This document shows, piece by piece, positions 3,935-59,472 of a DNA stretch of 64,000 bases. Within the stretch, counting starts at the first letter, position 1; every line of letters begins with the position of its first letter. A program made the translations under genes and the position numbers. The stretch covers positions 1,856,001 to 1,920,000 of the forward strand of contig OY970359.1 of assembly GCA_963718665.1 (NCBI GenBank). Reading direction: 5' to 3'. This stretch comes from an uncultured Phycisphaerales bacterium (GTDB lineage Bacteria; Planctomycetota; Phycisphaerae; Sedimentisphaerales; Anaerobacaceae). The notes under the pieces were generated by a model that saw only the letters and a list, made by a program, of their open reading frames with translations, had not been told where the DNA came from and did no database searches.

Positions 3935-5452
3935 ATGACCCCAGGACCGCGGATAAAACAAAGGAACAATCGCACATCGGCTACGGTTGGCGGCGGTATT
4001 AAGCCAACTGACGATATCCCGGTAACATTGCGGTATGAACGGCTTGTTATTGCCGGGCTTTGTCTTGCCGCTGCGATTCGCGTCTTTGCCTTCAGCGCCG
4101 CATTTCCCTTTTTTAATAATGTTGACGAACAGGCGCATTTTGATTTGGTCTTTAAATACTCCAGGTGGCATCTGCCTGCAGCGCCGCTGGAGAAATACGA
4201 CCCGGAGGCCGCTGAAATCATTATAAATGCCGCGCAGGGCGATTTTTTTGATATCCCGGTTGACAAATCTCCCTACATGTGGACACAGGCCGTTGCTTTT
4301 CAGAGAAGCATCGACAACCGTGAAACGTGGGCCTGGCCGGCGTATTATCTTTTGGCTGGGCTGTGGTGCCGGTTAGGCGAATCGCTGGCGATAACAGGTA
4401 CCGAATTACTTTATTGGATTCGTTTTCTTGACATTCCCCTCATGGCTGTCTTCGTGTGGCTGTCGTGGCTGTTTTCCCGCAGGATCTTTGGCGATAATTT
4501 CCAGGAGCGAATTGCGATTCCTCTTCTCGCCGCGTTTTTCCCGCAGGATATTTTTTACGCGATTACGGGCGACGTTCTTTCTCCGGTTGTTTTTGCGGCG
4601 GCATTCTTTATGCTTTTCGAAATCTATTTGAGTTCCAAATCCTTGAAGTACCATTTATTTACGGGCCTGCTTGTTGCCGCGACGTTCCTTGCCAAAGCGT
4701 CAAATATTGCCATCATGCTGCTTGCCGCTCTGGTTATCCTGATTAAAATCATACGTGCATCTCGCCAAAAACAGATTAAGCAATATCTGCCGGCCCTGAT
4801 TGCATTTGCCTTTGCCGCAACTGTTCCCATAGCAATCTGGCTTGGCCGTAATTATGTGCTCTTTGGTGACGCAGTCGGAGCGGCCGCCTCGGCAAAGTCG
4901 CATACCTGGACGGTTAAACCTTTAAGCGAGATGTTTAATCATCCCATCTTTACTCCTTCGGGGTTTCTTTATTTCATTTCCGAGCTGACAAAAACCTTCT
5001 GGCGGGGCGAGTTTGTCTGGCATAACAGGATAATAGCTTCGGTGTTTGTGGACTGGTTTTATGTAATCTCGTCCGGTGTTTTCCTGCTTGCCCTTATTCT
5101 TGATAAAAGCAGGTCTGACGGGTCTTGCCGCACTGCCCTGGCTGGGAGTTTGTTTGTTGTTATCATATCGATTGCTTTTCTTGCGTTTATGTCTATGCGG
5201 TATGACTTCGGCACCTGTGTTTATCCTTCTGTTGATAAGCCCTACTTTACTTCCGGCCGGCTGATTGCGGGCGCCATTTTGCCGTTTCTGATTCTTTACA
5301 TTGACGGCCTGCGCCGTATTCTTTCCAAATTACGGTGTGCTTACGCGTTGCTCTTTGTAGTCGGCATTATCGTCGCTGCCGTAACCGTATCGGAAATAAT
5401 ACTTAGCTGGTCTGTTTTCGCCAACCCAAATAACTGGTTCCACCTGATGTAG
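3935..5452 (+). CDS. Polytopic membrane protein, DUF2142/GT-C glycosyltransferase-like (copy 1)
   Basis: PFFNNVDEQAHF after the first TM resembles the GT-C DExxH motif. Many TM segments. Confidence 0.75.
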   Translation: MTPGPRIKQRNNRTSATVGGGIKPTDDIPVTLRYERLVIAGLCLAAAIRVFAFSAAFPFFNNVDEQAHFDLVFKYSRWHLPAAPLEKYDPEAAEIIINAAQGDFFDIPVDKSPYMWTQAVAFQRSIDNRETWAWPAYYLLAGLWCRLGESLAITGTELLYWIRFLDIPLMAVFVWLSWLFSRRIFGDNFQERIAIPLLAAFFPQDIFYAITGDVLSPVVFAAAFFMLFEIYLSSKSLKYHLFTGLLVAATFLAKASNIAIMLLAALVILIKIIRASRQKQIKQYLPALIAFAFAATVPIAIWLGRNYVLFGDAVGAAASAKSHTWTVKPLSEMFNHPIFTPSGFLYFISELTKTFWRGEFVWHNRIIASVFVDWFYVISSGVFLLALILDKSRSDGSCRTALAGSLFVVIISIAFLAFMSMRYDFGTCVYPSVDKPYFTSGRLIAGAILPFLILYIDGLRRILSKLRCAYALLFVVGIIVAAVTVSEIILSWSVFANPNNWFHLM

Positions 5453-5640
5453 AAACCGGGGCGTCCTATGGTCGTAACTAAAAAAATCCAGGCCAGCACA
5501 AATGCTGATCGTTACCAGGGACAAAAAGGCCTTCAAAACTTTCTCCTATATTGCTCTTGCCGTCAACTGAGGTCTGGGTTGTAAATCGGCCAGTGTGATG
5601 CCTTGCACGTTCATCAATTCTTTATTATCATATTTCATAA

Positions 5641-7164
5641 ATGACCCCAGGACCGCGGATAAAACAAAGGAACAATCGCACATCGGCTACGGTCGGCGGC
5701 GGTATTAAGCCCACTGACGATATCCCGGTTTCATTCCGGTATGAACGGCTTATTATTGCCGGGCTTTGTCTTGCCGTTGCGATTCGTGTCTTTGCCTTCA
5801 GCGCTGCGTTTCCATTTTTTAATAACGTTGACGAAGTAGCCCATTTTGACCTGGTTTTCAAGTATTCCCGTGGACATTTGCCTGCCGCATCGCTGGAGAA
5901 ATACGACCCGGTGGCCGTTGAAATTATCGCCAATTCGGGAGGAGGGGGGGAGTTCTTGGGTGACCACATTGACAAAACTCCCGACATTTTGGTGAAGGAA
6001 ATTGATTTCCTGACAAACGCCTACAATTATGAAACATGGTCATTCCCCTCATACTATCTTTTGGCGGGGCTGTGGTGTCGGTTAGGCGAATCGCTGGCGA
6101 TAACAGGCGCCGAATTACTTTATTGGATTCGTTTTCTTGATGTTCCTCTCGCGGTTGTCTTTGTGTGGCTGTCCTGGCTGTTTTCGCGCAGGTTCTTTCG
6201 TGATAATTTCCAGGAGCGAATCGCGATTCCTCTTCTCGCCGCGTTTTTCCCACAGGATATTTTTTACGCAATTACAGGCGACGTCCTTTCTCCGGTTGTC
6301 TTTGCGGCGGCGTTATTTATGCTCCTCGAAATCTATTTGAGCGAAAAATCCTGGAAGTACCATTTGTTTGCGGGTCTGCTTGTTGCCGCGACGTTCCTTG
6401 CCAAGGCGTCAAATATTGCCATTATACCTTTTGCCGCCTTTGTTGTGCTGATTAAAGTAACACAAGCGGTTCGCCAAAGACGTCTCAGGCAATACCTGTT
6501 TCCTCCCGCTGCCCTGGTTATCGCAGCATTGTTGCCGGTTGTCTTCTGGCTCGGTCGTAATTATATACTCTTTGGCGATGCCGTCGGAGCGGCCGCCTCG
6601 GCAAAGTCGCATACCTGGACGGTTAAACCTTTAAGCGAAATATTTAATCATCCCATCTTTACTCCTTCGGGATTTATTTATTTCATTTCCGAGCTGACAA
6701 AAACCTTCTGGCGGGGCGAATTTGTCTGGCATAACAGGATAATAGCATCGGCGTTTATGGACGGGTTTTATGTAATCTCGTCCGGTGTTTTCCTGCTTGC
6801 CCTTATTCTTGATAAAACCAGGTCTGACGGGTCTTGTCGCACTGCCCTGGCGGGGAGTTTGTTTGTTGTTATCTTATCGATTGTTTTTCTTGCGTTTATG
6901 TCTATGCGGTACGACTTCGGCACCTGTGTTTATCCTTCTGTTGCTAAGCCCTATTTTACCTCGGGCCGGCTGATTGCAGGCGCCATTTTGCCATTTCTAA
7001 TTCTTTACATTGATGGCTTGCGCCGTATTCTTTCCAAATTACGATGTGCTTCCGCGTTGCTCTTTGTAGTCGGCATTATCGTCGCTGCCATAACCGTATC
7101 GGAAATAGTACTTAGCTGGTCTGTTTTCGCCAATCCAGATAACTGGTTCCATCTGATAAAGTGA
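5641..7164 (+). CDS. Polytopic membrane protein, DUF2142/GT-C glycosyltransferase-like (copy 2)
   Basis: Close paralog of 3935-5452, with PFFNNVDEVAHF. Confidence 0.75.
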   Translation: MTPGPRIKQRNNRTSATVGGGIKPTDDIPVSFRYERLIIAGLCLAVAIRVFAFSAAFPFFNNVDEVAHFDLVFKYSRGHLPAASLEKYDPVAVEIIANSGGGGEFLGDHIDKTPDILVKEIDFLTNAYNYETWSFPSYYLLAGLWCRLGESLAITGAELLYWIRFLDVPLAVVFVWLSWLFSRRFFRDNFQERIAIPLLAAFFPQDIFYAITGDVLSPVVFAAALFMLLEIYLSEKSWKYHLFAGLLVAATFLAKASNIAIIPFAAFVVLIKVTQAVRQRRLRQYLFPPAALVIAALLPVVFWLGRNYILFGDAVGAAASAKSHTWTVKPLSEIFNHPIFTPSGFIYFISELTKTFWRGEFVWHNRIIASAFMDGFYVISSGVFLLALILDKTRSDGSCRTALAGSLFVVILSIVFLAFMSMRYDFGTCVYPSVAKPYFTSGRLIAGAILPFLILYIDGLRRILSKLRCASALLFVVGIIVAAITVSEIVLSWSVFANPDNWFHLIK

Positions 7165-50742: not shown

Positions 50743-52074
50743 TTATTCCAGCGTCCGCAGCGACAAACCGAGATTCGCCAGGACCCTTTTGACTTCGTTC
50801 AAGCTTGTTACGCCGAAATTTTTGCAGCCCAGCAGCTCCGCTTCCGTAATCCGCGTCAGCTCTCCGACCGTGCGCAGGTTGAGCTTCAGCAACGCCTTTT
50901 TCGCCCTGACTGACCACTGCAAATCCACTATCGGCTTGCCGGCCAATCCATGGTCGGCTGCGGGCTCTTCGGCAACACTGGCTGCCGGCACCGGGTCAGT
51001 CGGCCCGAACTGTCTGTCCTCCGGCATCATACCAAGCTGCAGGCCCTTGGAATCCAGGATCACTTTTATCTCACGCAAACTCGTCTCGCCGAAATTCTTA
51101 AACGCAAGCAGCTCCGCTTCGGTTGTCCTCAACAGGTCCCCGAGCGTATTGAGATTCATCTTCTTGAGGCAGTTCCTGCTTCGCACCGAAAGCTCAAAAT
51201 CAGACAACGGCGTTTCGAGAATCTGCATCTTACGGGTCTTCTTCTTCTCTGTCTCCTCGTCGTAAACCATCGTCTTGGAGCTTTGGATATCCTTCAGAAA
51301 CAAATTTGCCCGCTTGTGATTCGGATGACACGCCAGAACCTTCTGCACGCATCGCTCGGCCTTGTCGTAATCCGCCTTGTCCTCGTAAATCACCGCCAGG
51401 TTCAGCAATGCGCTTGTGTAAATCGGCGCCGATGATGTAATCGCCTTGTAGTAGTCAATCGCCGCGTCCTCATCGCCGGAAAGGTCGCAACGGTACGCCA
51501 GATGAAACATCGCTTCCTGATGCTTCGGCGAAAGCTCCAGCGCCGCCTTGTAATTTTCGGCCGCCTCATCATACAGCCCCTGCTTCTCACGCAGCCGGCC
51601 AAGCTGATAATGAAACTCCGCGCTTACGTTCTTAAAATTGGCACAACCTTTAAGCTCTTTTTCCGCTGACTCGAAATTGCCTGCCATGCGGTATGTGGCA
51701 GCTTTCTCCAGCGAAACCGCGAGCGAATCTGCCCCTTGTTTTGCACTGGCGTGGAAGTTCATTATCGCTTCGTCGTAATTGCCAAGCCGACGCAGAGTAG
51801 CCGCAAGGCACATAAACTTCTCTTTGCAGTCGTTGCCCTTCTGCAGTTTCTCGACCGCATCGGCGTCTTTCCCCAGGATAAACAGACCTATGCCCGCGGC
51901 CAGACACCCTTTGCCGCCGGTCTTGCTCATATTCTGCTCGACCTGCTCCGCAAAGGCCAACCGACTTGCCTCGCTCGAATGAACCTGCTCTGACAGCTTC
52001 TTTATTTGTTCTATGCTCAGTGTCTCTTCGCCGAACAAATTAATTCCGCTTTGTGTCTGTGTCGTTGCTTCCAT
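50743..52074 (-). CDS. TPR protein with two RNA polymerase alpha-CTD-like domains
   Basis: TPR repeats; FELSVRSRNCL...KNFGETSLREI and WSVRAKKAL...KNFGVTSLNEV; AGGAG RBS before ATG 52074. Confidence 0.9.
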   Translation of the reverse strand: MEATTQTQSGINLFGEETLSIEQIKKLSEQVHSSEASRLAFAEQVEQNMSKTGGKGCLAAGIGLFILGKDADAVEKLQKGNDCKEKFMCLAATLRRLGNYDEAIMNFHASAKQGADSLAVSLEKAATYRMAGNFESAEKELKGCANFKNVSAEFHYQLGRLREKQGLYDEAAENYKAALELSPKHQEAMFHLAYRCDLSGDEDAAIDYYKAITSSAPIYTSALLNLAVIYEDKADYDKAERCVQKVLACHPNHKRANLFLKDIQSSKTMVYDEETEKKKTRKMQILETPLSDFELSVRSRNCLKKMNLNTLGDLLRTTEAELLAFKNFGETSLREIKVILDSKGLQLGMMPEDRQFGPTDPVPAASVAEEPAADHGLAGKPIVDLQWSVRAKKALLKLNLRTVGELTRITEAELLGCKNFGVTSLNEVKRVLANLGLSLRTLE

Positions 52075-52222
52075 TAAATCTTCTCCTGAAAAAAAACCGC
52101 CGCCGCTCGGATCCTTGAATTTCGGTTTACCAATAGAAAGCAGCATTATAACCATCCTTACCTTTTTTGCAATACCTTTTTAACTATAGCAGCAATAAGC
52201 ACTTACGCAAAATATCAATCTT

Positions 52223-52285: not shown

Positions 52286-54481
52286 TTAATGCGAACCGCT
52301 GTAAAGTTCGCCAATCTCATTTTCCGACAAGGCGTAATTGTAAATCCGCACGTCGTCGATAAGGCCGTGGAAGCAACGCCCCTTCAGTTCGATGTTCTCG
52401 CCGATACAAACAGGGAAGCCATTTGTTGCGATGGGACCTGTCCGCGGCCTCGAAACATCCAGTTTCCCGTCAACGTATATGCTCATATTTTGTCCGTCAT
52501 AAACGCACATGACGTTATGCCACTGCCCCGAATCGACTGTGGTCTGACCGTTAAGATAATCACGGGCGGAAACGCCGAAGTGAAAGATGTTTTTGGCAAA
52601 AGAGGTTGACAATCGCCAGGCCGAATCGCCCTTGGTAACAATGCCCGTCCATTCCTGCGGGACGTCCGTTATATTTACCCATGCAGATACTGTTATCTGT
52701 TCGTTGATATCAAAATTCGCCTCGTTGCTGATTTCGACGTAATCACCCTTGCCACTGAATTCAAGAGCTCCGCCCGAAACACCGCCCGTCGGCCGCCATA
52801 CAGGATTGCCCTTTAGTGCGCCATTATTGCCGTTGCCGGAGTTGTCGTAGGCGATTGTCCCCGTGCTTTCGTCAAATTTCCACCATCCGACCAGTTTGCC
52901 GGTATTGAAACTCCATACATCGCCGGTCGTTACTTTGCCGTTGGCGTCAGTTCCGTCAACACGCCAGTAATAAGTCGTGTTCCTGTCCAGTTCCTGCACA
53001 ATCATATTACTATCGCCCGAGACATCAGCCAACAGTGATAACCCGTCTGAGGACGTCCCCATATATACCTTGTTTTCAACAGCATACATTCCGGGCATCC
53101 AGCTTAATTCCAAATCCGCAATCTGGCCGCACATAGTCGCATCAGCCGGTTTGGGTTTAATCGCCTTCGGCTGCCTGTTCAGCGGCATCGCCTCAAGTGC
53201 GGCAAGCTCATCGGCGCTTACGGTTTTAACCGTCAGATTGCCGAAGATGACACGGTACTGTTTATCCGAAACCTTCCACCGCATCAGGACGGAATCACCA
53301 AACTCGGCCGTCACTTTATCACCGTGATACACCGGCTCGTTACCTTCCTGAGTCAGCTTTTGGTAGAAAATGAATGGTCCCTGCAATTTCATTGCTTCAT
53401 TGATTAAGTTCTGCTGTAACTGGTCATTCGGCTCAGCACCGCGGGCAACATTTATCTTCTTTGTGAGCCCCTCTTGTGCCTCCAGTACCGCCGCCATGGC
53501 GTTCATTTGGCTTGGATACTTGCCGTCCGTGATTTCAGCAAATAGCTTAAACCCTTCAATCACACCCGTCTCGTCCTGGTTCGGCATTTTCATCTCGCCC
53601 ATCGTCGTGAAATCAGCCGGGATATTGGGTTCGAATAAATCCGGCAAAAGCTCCGTACCCCACTCGAAACCATCCATAACCATTATCATATTAATCTTCT
53701 GCTCGCCGAGTTTCATCTCCCCCTCGGTTTCTATCCTAACGGGATACTCCGTGGCGACATCAACCCACATACGGCCTGTGAAATTGCTGTAAATGCCTTG
53801 AACGGCCGGCGGATTATTAACTTCAATACCCTTGACTTCAACGCCGTTGATTGTATCTTTGCCGAGGTCCTTATATTGCCCCGACCCCCCGGACACAAAT
53901 TGAGTTACTATTGTCCGCGGGTCCTGCATTTGATTTTTTGACTTCGCCAGCTTTTCATCCGTCAGCGCCATACGCATATACTTTTTCTGGGTGGGCATCA
54001 CAATAATCATCGCCTTTTCGCTGGGATTCACATATATCTGCTGCATAGGGATACCATCAAGAGTGGTTTCTAATTTGGTTCCGTAGCTGGATGAGATATA
54101 CATCTTGGACTCGATTTGCTGACTCTTTTGACCGACAGCTCCTCCTGATTGTTGAATATGTATCCTGCAGACACACGTCTTTATCTGTGCCACTTTGTCT
54201 GCGATTTGTGCCCAGGCGCAGCACGTTACCACAGGCGCTTTGCCTGTTATGGCATATATGCCCGTCAAAACCGCGATGATAATTACCGCGGCAACAGCTA
54301 ATTTTGTAATCGGACTTCTCATGATTATCCTCCATGTACTCGGCTTGAACTGGGCCGATTGATTTTTCGTTTTCTCTGCCAGCGCATTATCGACAGCGTT
54401 ATGCACTCTCGCATCCAGCTCGGCGCTGGGGTTAATTTTCAAATCCGCGATTAACTTTTTAATATTGTCATTTGGTCTCAT
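52286..54481 (-). CDS. Anti-sigma-like membrane protein with LolA-like region, Fn3-like linker and C-terminal LamG domain
   Basis: Downstream of and overlapping an ECF gene; TM after WRIIMRSPITK; YYWRVD...GDVWSF; LVGWWKFDE...GLIDDVRIYNYALS. Confidence 0.85.
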   Translation of the reverse strand: MRPNDNIKKLIADLKINPSAELDARVHNAVDNALAEKTKNQSAQFKPSTWRIIMRSPITKLAVAAVIIIAVLTGIYAITGKAPVVTCCAWAQIADKVAQIKTCVCRIHIQQSGGAVGQKSQQIESKMYISSSYGTKLETTLDGIPMQQIYVNPSEKAMIIVMPTQKKYMRMALTDEKLAKSKNQMQDPRTIVTQFVSGGSGQYKDLGKDTINGVEVKGIEVNNPPAVQGIYSNFTGRMWVDVATEYPVRIETEGEMKLGEQKINMIMVMDGFEWGTELLPDLFEPNIPADFTTMGEMKMPNQDETGVIEGFKLFAEITDGKYPSQMNAMAAVLEAQEGLTKKINVARGAEPNDQLQQNLINEAMKLQGPFIFYQKLTQEGNEPVYHGDKVTAEFGDSVLMRWKVSDKQYRVIFGNLTVKTVSADELAALEAMPLNRQPKAIKPKPADATMCGQIADLELSWMPGMYAVENKVYMGTSSDGLSLLADVSGDSNMIVQELDRNTTYYWRVDGTDANGKVTTGDVWSFNTGKLVGWWKFDESTGTIAYDNSGNGNNGALKGNPVWRPTGGVSGGALEFSGKGDYVEISNEANFDINEQITVSAWVNITDVPQEWTGIVTKGDSAWRLSTSFAKNIFHFGVSARDYLNGQTTVDSGQWHNVMCVYDGQNMSIYVDGKLDVSRPRTGPIATNGFPVCIGENIELKGRCFHGLIDDVRIYNYALSENEIGELYSGSH

Positions 54482-55023
54482 TTGTGAACCTCGCCGTTCA
54501 GTGTGGACCGTAATTTTTCCAGGCCGTACCGGTATCGGCCTAATACCGTATTAACCGAAACATCCTGCGATTCGGCTATCGCGGCAAATTTCATTCCGCC
54601 GTGAATATGCAGCAGCACAACCTCTCTTTGCTCGTAGGGCAATTCTAAAATCGCCCGGCTCAAACGCCTGCTTTCCTCGCCGAAAACCGCTTCGCAATCG
54701 GGGCTGTTTGCTTTCGATGTAATCGGCTGCGCATCATCCAGCGAACCCTGGTTATGTCTGGAATTTGCCCTGATTACGTTTCGGGCGGCATTTGCCACGC
54801 AGGTTGCCAGAAAACCCTTCAAACTGCCCGTCAGCCGAAATCGCCTAAGCTGCAAAAACGATACAAACACATCGTGCACGACATCTTCCGCGGCTGCGGT
54901 ATTTTTCAGCAGAGCGACAGCCAGGGCCACGAGCTCGTGTTTATACTTCTCGTATATCCGCCTGACCGCCTCGCAGTCGCCGCGGTTAAATCGCCAGATA
55001 AGTAACTTATCTTCCAGATTCAC
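54478..55023 (-). CDS. ECF sigma factor
   Basis: AEDVVHDVFVSF, LPYEQREVVLLH, SVNTVLGRYRYGLEKLR. Confidence 0.95.
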   Translation of the reverse strand: MNLEDKLLIWRFNRGDCEAVRRIYEKYKHELVALAVALLKNTAAAEDVVHDVFVSFLQLRRFRLTGSLKGFLATCVANAARNVIRANSRHNQGSLDDAQPITSKANSPDCEAVFGEESRRLSRAILELPYEQREVVLLHIHGGMKFAAIAESQDVSVNTVLGRYRYGLEKLRSTLNGEVHK

Positions 55024-55098
55024 TCTTCAATTCCCAAGGGTTCGACAATCGACCGTCAATTATACAACACCGAACGAGGATGTTTTAGTATGTTTGGG

Positions 55099-55130
55099 CA
55101 CATAAAAAAGGCCGGACAAGTTGTCCGGCC
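55099..55130 (-). terminator. Intrinsic terminator, repeat family copy 2
   Basis: CACATAAAAAAGGCCGGACAAGTTGTCCGGCC. Confidence 0.8.
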
Positions 55131-55152
55131 ATGTTAATGAAGTTATTGTCGC

Positions 55153-56472
55153 TTATTGTTTATCAATCGGCCTGGGGAGGTCCGCTTCGGCGGCATCTTT
55201 GACGCTCAGGTCGCCGTAAATAACGTGGTATGTCTGTGAGCCGGCCGGACGATACCAGAAAATCGCGGTATTGGCATCGTCTAACTTGACGCCTTTGCCG
55301 GCATAAACCCATTTGCCTTCGCCCTTGAAGAACCTTATGAACATAACCCCCTTTTGCAGTTTAAGCCCCAGTTGGGTCTTTTCCTCATCCGACACCGTTA
55401 GCTTGTCAAATTTCTCTTTGATAGTCGCCGCATTTTTTACTATGTGCTCAATCGAGATGTCATCGGGGAAAACACCGTCACCAAGGACTTCGGCCTGAAC
55501 GCGCAGCCCCTCGATAAAATCCTCTTCGGTGGAGCTAAAAAGATTCATATCCTGTTTTTCAACTTTGTAACCCTCAGGGGCATTCATATCGAAAAGCGAC
55601 TCATTCATAGGCACGTCGAACCGCATGTTTTTGCAAATCACCTTCACTTGCCCTTCCTGCTGCAGTATTCGCACCGGAAGTCCTGTTTTCGGATCCGCCC
55701 ATATTTCTATCTCAACTTTGGGATGTTTTGCCTTTAAGCCATACAGGGTTTGGCCGTCGATAACCTGGTCACCTATATCTTCGACAGTAAAGCCCGGGAG
55801 TTTTTCAAGCATAGTTATAACGTTGCGAAGCTGGTCCATATAGTTGGGCATCTGCGGCAGGTCCTTAAGCGAGATATACACCGCTTTTTTGTTGGCGGGG
55901 TCGAGATACAGAATTTGCGAGGTGCCCAAATCAATAATACGCACTGCTTCCATACCGCTTAAAGTCCGCCTGATTTTTGACCCCATAATCATATCGTGAA
56001 TCACAGGCGCATTGCCTTCTTCGCCGACGATAATGTCAAATTCCGCGGTATTGGCGTCCAGAATCGAGCGGATGACACAGTCCCAGGCGAGGCACGGTTT
56101 TGTGCCGCTGCCCGCAAAATAGTGAATACCCACAATCACGGCCACGATTATTACCGCGGCCACAGCAAATTTTGTAATCGTACTTCTCATAATGAACCTC
56201 CAGAAGTTCAAGTTTTGTTTATCCTGATTCGCTTTCCGAAGTTTGAGTGCCTGTTCGCGGACGATTCTGTCCATCACTGCATTTTCGAGGTCATCTTTAA
56301 TGCTGCTGGTGCCATTGGCGATAAGACGCTTTTGAAGCGAGGTTATCTGTTCGAGTTCTTTGCGGCACTCGGCACATGTATTCAGATGTGATTTGACCGC
56401 CTGGTTCTGGCCGGCGTCAAGCAGTCCTTCAATGTAACCTACTAAAAGTTCTCTGCATTGGGAGCAATTCAT
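55153..56472 (-). CDS. Zinc-finger (ZAS) anti-sigma factor with TM and LolA-like periplasmic region
   Basis: MNCSQCRELL..YIEG.L...HLNTCAEC; WRFIMRSTITKFAVAAVII. Confidence 0.9.
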   Translation of the reverse strand: MNCSQCRELLVGYIEGLLDAGQNQAVKSHLNTCAECRKELEQITSLQKRLIANGTSSIKDDLENAVMDRIVREQALKLRKANQDKQNLNFWRFIMRSTITKFAVAAVIIVAVIVGIHYFAGSGTKPCLAWDCVIRSILDANTAEFDIIVGEEGNAPVIHDMIMGSKIRRTLSGMEAVRIIDLGTSQILYLDPANKKAVYISLKDLPQMPNYMDQLRNVITMLEKLPGFTVEDIGDQVIDGQTLYGLKAKHPKVEIEIWADPKTGLPVRILQQEGQVKVICKNMRFDVPMNESLFDMNAPEGYKVEKQDMNLFSSTEEDFIEGLRVQAEVLGDGVFPDDISIEHIVKNAATIKEKFDKLTVSDEEKTQLGLKLQKGVMFIRFFKGEGKWVYAGKGVKLDDANTAIFWYRPAGSQTYHVIYGDLSVKDAAEADLPRPIDKQ

Positions 56473-57023
56473 AACTGCACCTCACTTTCCTGTGCTGCTT
56501 CGTCTTTAAGTATCTCTCGCAACCGTGCATAAGCCCTCGAAAGAGACTTGGTCACCGTTCCTATGGGGATATTCATTATGGTCGCGACGTCTTTGCAGGT
56601 GTGCCCGCCATAGTATCGAAGCAAAATCAACTGCCTTGAAAAATCATCGAGCTTGGCAACTGTTTTTGCCAACGGCCAGTCACGTCCGCCTTCGGATTGG
56701 GCGGGCATTTGAGCCAGTTTCTCGGCGGTCTGACGCTCTTTTTGCTCGATTCTTACCTGCTCTTTGGCGACGCGATTGGCAACGCCTAACATCCAGGCGA
56801 AAAACGATTCCGGCTTTTCGAGTGAAGACAAGCCGAAATAGCACCTGACAAATACTTCCTGCAGCGCCTCTTCCGCCAAATCGCTTCTTCCAAGCTGCCC
56901 CGCCAAATACCCCAAAACAGGCCCTTTGTATCGCCGGACGAGGTGTCGAAAATCGTCCGGATGGCCGTCAAGGCAACGCTGAATGTAAAATCCGTCATTT
57001 TCAGGCATTTTCAAGCTCCACAT
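56469..57023 (-). CDS. ECF sigma factor
   Basis: AEEALQEVFVRCY, FFAWMLGVA.R, IPIGTVTKSLSRA. Confidence 0.95.
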   Translation of the reverse strand: MWSLKMPENDGFYIQRCLDGHPDDFRHLVRRYKGPVLGYLAGQLGRSDLAEEALQEVFVRCYFGLSSLEKPESFFAWMLGVANRVAKEQVRIEQKERQTAEKLAQMPAQSEGGRDWPLAKTVAKLDDFSRQLILLRYYGGHTCKDVATIMNIPIGTVTKSLSRAYARLREILKDEAAQESEVQL

Positions 57024-57092
57024 ACTAACATATCAAAAAAACCCTGGGTCTTCACTATATAGTGATGCAAACGCCCCTTTTGCGACAAAAAA

Positions 57093-57125
57093 ATAAAAAA
57101 GGCCGGGCAAAACCACCCGGCCTTT
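57093..57125 (-). terminator. Intrinsic terminator, repeat family copy 3
   Basis: ATAAAAAAGGCCGGGCAAAACCACCCGGCCTTT. Confidence 0.8.
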
Positions 57126-57147
57126 ATGTTTGTACACGATATTCAGG

Positions 57148-58773
57148 TCATAATCCGCCGTCAACAACCCATCGTTTTGCGGGATTGTCGTTTCTCACCG
57201 CCAGGTTAAACTTTTTAACACTTGACTCGCGGCACTTCACAAAGTAAGCAGATTGCTCCGCCAACCAGGAGGATTTTCCAACCTCCACGATTGGTAATTG
57301 CTTTTGCACATCCATCCCATACTTTGCTGCCATTTCGCACTCACTCTTGAATTTCTTAGCATAAGAGTCAGGCACGAATTTTCGCATTTCGTTGAAATCC
57401 AACCTTGAAACCGCACCGTAGTATTTCTTCAACACCTCTTGCGGTGACATTTTTGCATAAGTATCGTTATCCGCCAGAACCTCCGGCTCATTCGACCATT
57501 TTATTTCCTCTGTGAGTTGCAGTTTAGAATCATACTCTCCCGTTATTACAAATCGCTTAGCGGAGTTCGCGTTGGAGAGACGCACATTAACTTCTCTCGG
57601 ACGAAGTTTAATTTCATACGGTACAAACCAGCCCGGATACTGACCGGACTTGAATGGTTCTCCCAGAGAGATGACCTGCAATCCGCCAAGATAGCTCTTC
57701 AGATTATCATCCACAGCTGACATAGGCCATAATTTGAGGAATTCACCCCAGTTTTCATCCGCACAGGCCTTAAAAAATGCCTCAGCGGTCTGTTTGGGCG
57801 TCATACTCACATAGGTTTCATTGTCCGGCAGGACCTTGGGCTGCTGTGACCATATAACATCCTGCGGCAACTCAAGCGTGAACAGCCCATCGTCGATTTG
57901 CGGATTGTATTCAATCTCATTGACCTCGAAAATCAGGACATCTCCTTTGTCTGTGTGCACAAATACCTCAAAACCTTTCAGGAGCTTGGTTTCCGCGTCA
58001 AAATAATAGACCTTCTTGTTGTTGGAGTCCGAGATGAACTTGTTCCTGAGGTAATCATTTGTATAGTTGCCGGTTGCTTTACTCTCAATCTCAAGCACTG
58101 ATTTTGGTCTGCTGCTCGATACTTCTCGTCGCAGATGCAATTCACTATCCGGTCGATTTTTAGCTTCCTGTATAGCGCTATCGAGAAGGCCATCAACGTT
58201 CAACAGATGTCCGAACCAGGTATCGAAACAGCCAATAGGATACGGCCTCTCTGCTTTGACGGCGTAATTGGGCCTCATTAACATTATTGTCGAGTTGCCG
58301 TCCGTAACAATCACGCGCTGGGGTTTCTCGATTCGCCATCGCAAAATACCCGCGTCGTCCACTTTCTTCCACATCTCGATTGGCACAAAATCATACTCCA
58401 GGCCGATTAACGCGAAGTTGTCGCCCGGAAGGGTTCGCATCTGCGCCTTGATGTGGATTGACCGCACGTCTTGAATTGCCTTAGTTGCCTCGGTAAGCAC
58501 TTGGACTGCTGCCGAAGCCGTTGGATTTGTCCTGTTCCATATCGTTGCTAAAACCACTACCCCTATTGTTATCACCGCCGCAGCGGCGAATTTGGTTATT
58601 CTGTTGTTCATAATCGTTCTCCATAAACTCATTCCGGCGGCCGGTGCCTTTGCTGCTATGGCCCTGTCAAGGGCGTTCGCGGCGTCGGCAAGAATCCGGT
58701 CTTTGTTAATAACATCCGGTTTGATTCGTATTTCTTTGGCCAGTTTTTCTATCTTTTCGTTATTCATTTTCAC
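57148..58773 (-). CDS. Anti-sigma-like membrane protein with LolA-like region and duplicated C-terminal domain
   Basis: Overlaps an ECF gene; WRTIMNNRITKFAAAAVI; repeats VLPDNETY.SMTP / VLADNDTY.KMSP and N.N.AKR(F/W)V. Confidence 0.85.
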   Translation of the reverse strand: MKMNNEKIEKLAKEIRIKPDVINKDRILADAANALDRAIAAKAPAAGMSLWRTIMNNRITKFAAAAVITIGVVVLATIWNRTNPTASAAVQVLTEATKAIQDVRSIHIKAQMRTLPGDNFALIGLEYDFVPIEMWKKVDDAGILRWRIEKPQRVIVTDGNSTIMLMRPNYAVKAERPYPIGCFDTWFGHLLNVDGLLDSAIQEAKNRPDSELHLRREVSSSRPKSVLEIESKATGNYTNDYLRNKFISDSNNKKVYYFDAETKLLKGFEVFVHTDKGDVLIFEVNEIEYNPQIDDGLFTLELPQDVIWSQQPKVLPDNETYVSMTPKQTAEAFFKACADENWGEFLKLWPMSAVDDNLKSYLGGLQVISLGEPFKSGQYPGWFVPYEIKLRPREVNVRLSNANSAKRFVITGEYDSKLQLTEEIKWSNEPEVLADNDTYAKMSPQEVLKKYYGAVSRLDFNEMRKFVPDSYAKKFKSECEMAAKYGMDVQKQLPIVEVGKSSWLAEQSAYFVKCRESSVKKFNLAVRNDNPAKRWVVDGGL

Positions 58774-59305
58774 ACTCTGTATTCAAAAGGGACCTTACTT
58801 TTTCAATCCCGTAACGATATCTGCTTTGCACCGTGTTGATTGAAGCTCCAACTTGTTCGGCAATCTGCTGAAAGGTCATATCTCCCTGTACGTGCAGGAT
58901 AAATACCTCTCGCTGCTCATAAGGCAGTTGGCCAAGCGCGTCAAACACCTGCTTGGCGCCTTCACTGGTTGTTAGCCGGCTGCTCGGCTCATCGGTATTC
59001 GCCGCAAGCTCAACCAGCCCTACATCCACGTTCGCCGACCTTGTTCTTTTTCGCAGCAGGTCGCGCGCACGGTTTGCGACGCAGCTTATCAGGTAACTCC
59101 GCAGGTTACTGTGAATCCGCAAACCCGGCACAGCCGCCGCAAAATCAATAAACGCGTCGTGAAGGCAATCTTCAGCGGTTTGAACGTCGTGAACAAGCGT
59201 CACGGCAACACTGACTAAAATATCCGTATACTTTTCATAGAGCTGGCGTAAGGCGTCTTTGTCGCCCCTTTGCAGTCGTTTCAATATTTGTTTGTCTTGC
59301 GCCAT
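58760..59305 (-). CDS. ECF sigma factor
   Basis: AEDCLHDAFIDF, LPYEQREVFILH, SINTVQSRYRYGIEKVR. Confidence 0.95.
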   Translation of the reverse strand: MAQDKQILKRLQRGDKDALRQLYEKYTDILVSVAVTLVHDVQTAEDCLHDAFIDFAAAVPGLRIHSNLRSYLISCVANRARDLLRKRTRSANVDVGLVELAANTDEPSSRLTTSEGAKQVFDALGQLPYEQREVFILHVQGDMTFQQIAEQVGASINTVQSRYRYGIEKVRSLLNTECENE

Positions 59306-59435
59306 TCCCAAACTTTCCAAAGCTATATAGCCGTTGAAGCTTCAACTATTAACCTGACGATTTTAGCGAGTGTTTTAGTTTAAAAAAACCATTTTTTTGG
59401 CCGGATTACTTTTTCGGGGTGGATAAACGTCTTTT

Positions 59436-59472
59436 GCGCATAAAAAAAGCCGGGCATAAATACCCGGCCTTT
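59436..59472 (-). terminator. Intrinsic terminator, repeat family copy 4
   Basis: GCGCATAAAAAAAGCCGGGCATAAATACCCGGCCTTT. Confidence 0.8.

Follow-up and report, generated by a model that had tools for sequence, protein, structure and literature searches.

In-frame internal initiation is known in bacteria from the arcB gene (giving ArcB-C) and the speA gene of Escherichia coli (Meydan et al., bioRxiv 10.1101/520783), with CheA-S and SpaO-S among the further cases in the accessible text of a review (PMC13515050). Control of extracytoplasmic function (ECF) sigma factors has been described for RseA-RseB (sigmaE of E. coli), MucA-MucB (AlgU of Pseudomonas aeruginosa), and RsiV (sigmaV of Bacillus subtilis), and anti-sigma genes are usually read as one gene encoding one regulator. 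Here, we describe a family of predicted anti-sigma genes with two starts, seen in a 64,000-nucleotide stretch (the window) of contig OY970359.1 from an uncultured Phycisphaerales bacterium (positions 1,856,001–1,920,000), where three tandem cassettes occupy 52.3–59.3 kb of the minus strand, each comprising an ECF sigma gene that overlaps the gene of a single-pass partner and is followed by a terminator-like hairpin. Each partner gene has two well-formed starts under selection, the second being a Shine-Dalgarno (SD) sequence and in-frame ATG just ahead of the membrane helix. We propose, with a probability of about 0.7 judged from sequence, that one gene yields both an anti-sigma factor and a sigma-blind, exported sensor or effector copy.

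The sequence-only reading of this locus had reported three minus-strand strings with the A of the ATG at 54322, 56190, and 58611, and a spacer of 6–7 nt between the end of GGAGG or GGAG and the ATG, all of which we found exactly as described. The source genome (2.6 Mb, 49% GC; closest homologs in records labelled Sedimentisphaerales, Phycisphaerae, Planctomycetota) holds two further sigma/anti-sigma pairs, five in total. In 5/5 pairs the ECF sigma gene is immediately upstream of and coupled to the anti-sigma gene, and TGG-AGR-NNN-ATH-ATG is present in 5/5 (TGG AGA NNN ATT ATG in both pairs outside the window). The genome has the anti-SD CCUCC and its starts are SD-led; GGAG begins 11 nt upstream of the ATG at all three window sites, within the native range of −9 to −14 (mode −12) drawn from 450 constrained starts of this genome. 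Using a log-odds matrix of these 450 native starts versus internal ATGs, the window sites were placed at percentiles 99.5, 99.5, and 99.9 among the 10,112 internal ATGs scored and at percentiles 50, 51, and 74 among native starts; for comparison, an ordinary secreted-protein gene of this genome (C1:625022) starts in the context TGGAGAATAATTATG. Tryptophan-arginine dipeptides genome-wide use AGR in 14% of 444 cases, versus 34.5% for all arginines. A strict DNA pattern applied to 251 genomes of the phylum matched in the source genome only, which says nothing, because homologs were found by profile in 44 of 301 genomes of the class; the pattern is too strict to be informative. A search for relatives in viral contigs found none.

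Homologs were gathered with patterns covering only the downstream hydrophobic motif, blind to both SD and ATG, which gave 231 distinct sites; the counts below use the strict set of 188 with an upstream sigma gene, the other 43 being excluded, and relatives within these counts are not independent owing to kinship. An in-frame ATG lies 5–7 codons ahead of a conserved lysine in 160/188 homologs. The sequence-only reading had asked whether the arginine codon is biased, and homologs with the ATG do avoid CGN here, with AGR at −3 in 124/124 and AGG at −4 in 38/41, versus AGR in 9/51 ectodomain W-R pairs of the same genes. An SD word is present in 148/160 genes with the ATG, against 45 expected after synonymous recoding of the same peptides. 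The proposed W-R-x-I-M motif fared less evenly: the TGG-AGR string is present in all window genes, but it is not conserved as a protein motif across the family, the first residue being W in only 54%, R in 26%, and G in 16%, with replacement by R(AGG) and G(GGG) rather than by F or Y. Base by base, position −12 is variable (T58, A23, G17%) while −11 to −8 are G96, G95, A90, and G86%, and in some homologs GGAG lies one base later (−10 register; L-E, W-E) or earlier (−12 register; G-E). Given that the first base varies while GGAG stays constant, the constraint is on nucleotides, not residues, and these codon and nucleotide tests support the earlier suggestion that the motif is the footprint of a second translation start.

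The surroundings of the site are consistent with initiation, with third-position A/T of 0.7–0.9 over codons −6 to +7 (0.5–0.6 expected) and RNA folding weakest at −30 to +24 around the internal ATG. The pattern is found in 16 of 21 ectodomain clusters (30% identity) and extends to a second set found by a profile that includes the motif at the protein level: in other families of the order, Met occurs in 33/35 and AGR in 33/33 (~6 expected), and in other orders, Met occurs in 26/28 and AGR in 25/29 (~6 expected). Genes with a third-position GC content (GC3) above 0.65 have AGR in 15/16, versus 2.2 expected, and distant orders use different SD words (AAAGGA, AGGAAA, AGGAGG) at other spacings.

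The long reading frame is genuine as well. The frame is open from the sigma stop to the helix in 188/188 homologs (four with a longer intergenic gap), overlaps the sigma stop as ATGA or GTGA in 95/188, and has its own SD for the long form in 136/184, and most differences in the N-terminal domain are at third codon positions (0.22/0.12/0.37). SD and ATG at the internal site go together, the SD being present in 148/160 genes with the ATG versus 9/28 without (Fisher 1e-11, kin not independent), with GTG or TTG in place of ATG in 2 of the 28. Both elements occur in 117/138 long-ectodomain genes and in 3/18 short-ectodomain genes, all three of which stop at runs of N or seem to be truncated. None of the 14 intact short-ectodomain genes, which come from four unrelated classes, has both. 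An overlapping +1-frame open reading frame ending at the ATGA is not conserved. In a single case, a stand-alone LolA-like gene (L193:2942–3631) between two cassettes begins at the equivalent of the internal Met and has no sigma gene or anti-sigma domain. We also noted one SD-ATG-signal-ectodomain module (L173:39–786) fused in frame to the end of an unrelated membrane domain of several helices, with no sigma detected upstream.

Transcription from within the gene was also considered. For three sigma classes, the class-specific upstream motifs gave the cassettes' own promoters as top matches in the genome (17–36 bits), versus at most 6 bits at the internal start, and an internal ECF promoter ahead of the second start was rejected on this basis. 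There was no excess of sigma70-like promoters ahead of the internal start (11 vs 10.3). Given no promoter match before the internal start, a single mRNA would serve for both forms, and targets beyond the cassettes themselves may be few.

The features of the three cassettes, all on the minus strand, are as follows:

58760–59320, minus: ECF sigma factor 3 (Pfam Sigma70_r2/r4_2/ECF)
57148–58767, minus: predicted anti-sigma gene 3, long form of 539 amino acids, start overlapping the sigma stop; short helical N-terminal domain, signal-like transmembrane (TM) segment, LolA/RseB-fold domain (83–308), NTF2-like part (320–539)
58609–58622, minus: internal site of gene 3, GGAG at 58622–58619 and ATG at 58611 (codon 53); short form of 487 amino acids
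58510–58611, minus: signal-peptide-like segment of short form 3 by sequence (MNNRITK, hydrophobic core, A-S-A; presumed cleavage site)
57098–57125, minus: intrinsic-terminator-like hairpin after cassette 3
57041–57070, minus: upstream motif specific to the class of sigma 2 (putative −10 region), best match in the genome
56469–57023, minus: ECF sigma factor 2 (Pfam search)
55153–56472, minus: predicted anti-sigma gene 2, long form of 439 amino acids, ATGA overlap with the sigma stop; zf-HC2/anti-sigma domain (ASD; 1–57), signal-like TM segment, LolA/LprG/RseB fold (128–308), C-terminal domain
56188–56201, minus: internal site of gene 2, GGAGG at 56201–56197 and ATG at 56190 (codon 95); short form of 345 amino acids
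56149–56205, minus: conserved junction block of gene 2 (−15 to +42), exchange zone of sigma/ASD modules and ectodomains
54281–54337 and 58570–58626, minus: equivalents of the junction block in genes 1 and 3, respectively
55110–55130, minus: terminator-like hairpin after cassette 2
55061–55090, minus: putative autoregulated ECF promoter of sigma 1 (TACTAAAA ... TGTTGTATA), best match in the genome
54478–55023, minus: ECF sigma factor 1 (Pfam search)
52286–54481, minus: predicted anti-sigma gene 1, long form of 731 amino acids, ATGA overlap with the sigma stop; short N-terminal domain, signal-like TM segment with A-W-A, ectodomain homologous to gene 2, C-terminal LamG
54320–54333, minus: internal site of gene 1, GGAGG at 54333–54329 and ATG at 54322 (codon 54); short form of 678 amino acids
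52233–52258, minus: terminator-like hairpin after cassette 1

Near-identical GGCCGG...CCGGCC terminator-like hairpins follow all three cassettes and also the upstream 3-keto-disaccharide hydrolase gene (59449–59468); a similar hairpin lies 3′ of 50/139 homologs, and entire cassettes could use these hairpins as a second site of exchange. The gene next to the cassettes on their downstream side (50743–52155, minus) encodes a protein with TPR repeats and two alpha-CTD domains of RNA polymerase.

By gene order, coupling, and the gene 2 ASD, the partner genes are predicted to be of the class I single-pass ECF anti-sigma type, with sigma binding a prediction from sequence and models. The gene 2 N-terminus is a zf-HC2 domain in Pfam and its model matches cytoplasmic MucA (Z 7.5, root-mean-square deviation 2.0 over 53 residues) and RsiW (Z 7.3, 1.5 over 56). 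The short N-termini of genes 1 and 3 (52–53 amino acids) are helical, with a predicted confidence (pLDDT) of about 50, and do not appear in the list of fold matches; they align with the second half of the gene 2 ASD by hhalign. Outside the membrane, the gene 2 domain has the LolA/LprG/RseB fold (Z 12.1, Foldseek E 1e-8) and the gene 3 domain a LolA/RseB fold (Z 13.6) with RseB as its top Foldseek match (E 7e-8), followed by the NTF2-like part in the predicted model. Since genes 1 and 2 show homology across 384 columns (hhalign 99.8%), with LamG added in gene 1, the gene 1 ectodomain is taken to be LolA-like. A PDB sequence search with A2 gave no match below E 0.2, and a two-copy complex prediction for the gene 2 ectodomain scored 0.00, which counts neither way.

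At their N-termini, the short forms would carry a basic n-region, then a hydrophobic core and an A-x-A-like site, in line with the sequence-only reading of an isoform that lacks the anti-sigma domain and begins with a signal-peptide-like segment. By a simple pattern, the A-x-A-like site is found in 121/148 genes with the start versus 8/28 without. The LolA/RseB fold starts right after this site, with a helix just beyond it in the models (130–138 in gene 2, 83–97 in gene 3), and signal peptidase I and M50 protease families are present in the genome. In this subfamily, cysteines sit beside the putative cleavage site (gene 1 residues 87–88, CCAWA; gene 2 residues 127 and 132, PCLAWDC), possibly for redox or disulfide control; by eye, this is not a lipobox.

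The internal start coincides with a zone of module exchange, which, like the LolA/RseB fold of the ectodomain, the sequence-only reading had not picked up. Among pairs with ectodomains >55% identical, the sigmas are <40% identical in 41/62, and among pairs with sigmas >70% identical, the ectodomains are <30% identical in 18/27, with the identity switch located within −15 to +42 of the internal ATG. One gene in L054 has a sigma 92% identical to that of window gene 2 and an ectodomain 85% identical to that of window gene 3. On these sequence comparisons, swapping is real and common among family members. Since the same ~55 bases are the crossover zone, homogenization is the chief competing explanation for part of the DNA conservation. 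The SD bin moves with the sigma module (identity 0.80 vs 0.62–0.65 otherwise), and the SD is therefore mostly outside the exchanged tract; junction similarity is 0.63 for paralogs within a genome versus 0.57 between genomes, over baselines of 0.35 and 0.32.

That the block is a recombination junction and nothing more, kept alike by exchange or gene conversion between tandem cassettes, with the SD-ATG a seldom-used, hitch-hiking relic (e.g., left from the start of an ancestral secreted gene that stood alone), would account for the swapping counts, the sharp identity switch, the mixed gene in L054, and the alanine codons described below, whose conservation does not depend on initiation. We nonetheless regard it as unlikely: GGAG is retained in many sigma classes despite lying mostly outside the exchanged tract, the base adjoining the SD is free to vary, the SD occurs in shifted registers, distant orders have different SD words, genes without the ATG retain the alanine codons but lose the SD, and paralogs within a genome are hardly more alike at the block than genes from different genomes. 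Junction swapping and a translation start probably coexist here. Tryptophan and arginine or lysine are common at the cytoplasmic membrane border, and W-R-x-I-M-K might accordingly be a juxtamembrane protein motif with AGR a local codon bias; we give this next to no credence, as the tryptophan is replaced by codons that preserve the SD letters, AGR is avoided in W-R pairs elsewhere in these genes and in the genome, and such motifs have no need of Met. Hardly more probable is an SD that acts on elongating ribosomes, as a membrane-targeting pause or frameshift stimulator, rather than in initiation. Internal SDs are able to stimulate frameshifts (dnaX, prfB), and GAAAAGY occurs downstream in 84/148, but there is no X XXY YYZ heptamer, the window genes do not even have GAAAAG, the SD comes paired with an ATG at the distance used for initiation, and the upstream +1 frame is not conserved as open (median 4 codons).

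A further explanation shares the internal start with the two-product reading and differs only in the role of the short form. As a co-sensor or decoy akin to RseB/MucB, the short form would bind the long form (or titrate signal peptidase) and protect the latter from cleavage at site 1 for as long as ligand is absent; one gene would then encode RseA and RseB. The ectodomain does have the RseB/MucB fold (RseB as top Foldseek match for gene 3; Z 8–9), and in the accessible text of PMC7593790, RseB and MucB protect their anti-sigma factor until lipopolysaccharide displaces them. The LolA/LprG/LppX carriers fit better than RseB by Z (12–13.6 vs 8–9), however, and the long form in AlphaFold2 models is almost without a free periplasmic RseA-type peptide for RseB to grip. 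The sigma operon has no separate RseB-like gene; this part is fused in frame, and the cassettes end in terminator-like hairpins. We consider this role a minority prospect, though a weightier one than the junction-only account.

Several observations weigh against the use of a second start as we read it. The arginine codon is AGA in 121 and AGG in 3 homologs, so the SD is nearly always GGAGA; this near uniformity, with no spread of strengths, counts against us because homogenization would give the same. We did note that GGAGG occurs in a quarter of native GGAG starts yet in 3/124 at the internal site, with two of the three window genes among those cases, and the GGAGA preference is possibly a tuning of the isoform ratio. 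Silent sites are also conserved family-wide in codons +8 to +13 after the internal ATG (GCC GCY GCG GCG GTG ATA, e.g., 54281–54298), with synonymous conservation at these alanine codons of 0.50 against an expected 0.27. Genes lacking the ATG show this too, and initiation does not account for it. Alifold around the site returned only a weak 6-pair hairpin in the alanine codons (−1.8 kcal), and a conserved RNA structure there was set aside. Among the long-ectodomain members, 13/138 lack the ATG (one of these, L052, through a register error of the alignment anchor) and only 1 of them has GTG, while several retain the SD with ATA, ACG, or GTA in the ATG place; the short form would therefore be dispensable in some lineages. 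The A-x-A lies ~12–15 residues past the hydrophobic core (a signal of 34–38 amino acids), a longer c-region than usual, so release of the short form is likely rather than certain. The promoter scan used a rough matrix with weak separation, and two genic matches score 20, versus 23 and 20 for the cassettes' own promoters. Finally, the role of the short form as an effector (output or buffer) rather than an RseB-like shield or co-sensor is our surmise.

Taken with these points, the selection on the site makes it likely that the second start is used. In the mechanism we favor, each cassette would be a self-contained ECF unit with its own promoter, sigma, anti-sigma, and terminator. The upstream start, coupled to the sigma stop, would give the long form, with a cytoplasmic anti-sigma domain, one membrane helix, and a periplasmic LolA/RseB-fold sensor, whereas the internal SD and ATG would give a short form with a Sec-type n-region and the same helix, without the sigma-binding domain. 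The short form would be exported and then probably released at the A-x-A by signal peptidase, or may remain anchored; the long form would probably be destroyed in an RsiV-like manner, through signal peptidase followed by an M50 protease. Given that the sigma promoter motif has few strong sites beyond the cassettes, we take the short form to be the most likely output of the cassette. It may act as a periplasmic binder of the lipid or hydrophobic ligand sensed by the long form, made in more copies when the sigma fires, and may also buffer the signal as negative feedback. The ~55-base block would double as the site of homologous crossover at which sigma modules and sensor domains are paired anew, so that each new pairing would inherit both products. 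More tentatively, and with some doubt, the block may be an element with three jobs (sigma-blind isoform start, signal or anchor of both isoforms, and sigma-sensor crossover), giving each gene an RseA-like regulator and a free RseB/LolA-like partner at a ratio set by a GGAGA-tuned SD, a design that may recur across phyla.

If the second start is used, a large ECF cassette family derives a sensor and a soluble effector or co-sensor from a single frame. That would account for the output of a two-gene cassette without an obvious regulon, and a shift of start would let a membrane anchor serve also as a signal peptide. This would offer a design rule for synthetic ECF circuits, with the junction as a natural swap point for sensor domains, and is a caution that "conserved motifs" beside membrane helices can be nucleotide signals. 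Elsewhere, we noted two cysteine-rich, repeat-sharing, secreted-looking proteins (L002:3109–4020 and 5228–6094) alternating with secreted partners in an AT-rich cluster of toxin/immunity-like layout, and an integrase-like frame in two pieces (L001:518–1361), which lies close to a tRNA-like end and upstream of the second sigma/anti-sigma pair cluster.

Like RseA-RseB and MucA-MucB, the cassettes combine a class I anti-sigma domain with a periplasmic LolA-fold partner; those systems use two genes, whereas here there is one reading frame with two starts, and the extra domains are varied (LamG, NTF2-like, TPR). As in RsiV (PMC6066255, PMC7593790, accessible text), a single-pass anti-sigma factor would be its own receptor, with a signal-peptidase-type site and then a helix just outside the membrane. 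RsiV binds lysozyme via a different ectodomain according to the same text, which describes no second start in RsiV, and the RsiV domain DUF4179 was matched in only 1 of 83 members, weakly (E 0.0028). Full-text literature searches, with subscription papers and supplements outside their scope, returned no anti-sigma factor with an internal start, and "anti-sigma" is absent from the main text of the internal-start review (PMC13515050). According to that review, N-terminomics used by itself misses the start once the protein has been cleaved. The family shares with the known internal starts, as far as the accessible text of these sources describes them, a conserved SD and in-frame start at a domain boundary that give an N-terminally truncated isoform with another localization or role. 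Those starts take away a signal or release a cytoplasmic domain, whereas here the start would turn a membrane anchor into a signal peptide, and, unlike them, the anti-sigma case is family-wide across several orders of Phycisphaerae. Internal starts, RseA-RseB, and RsiV are thus already known, and what appears new is the internal start in an anti-sigma family.

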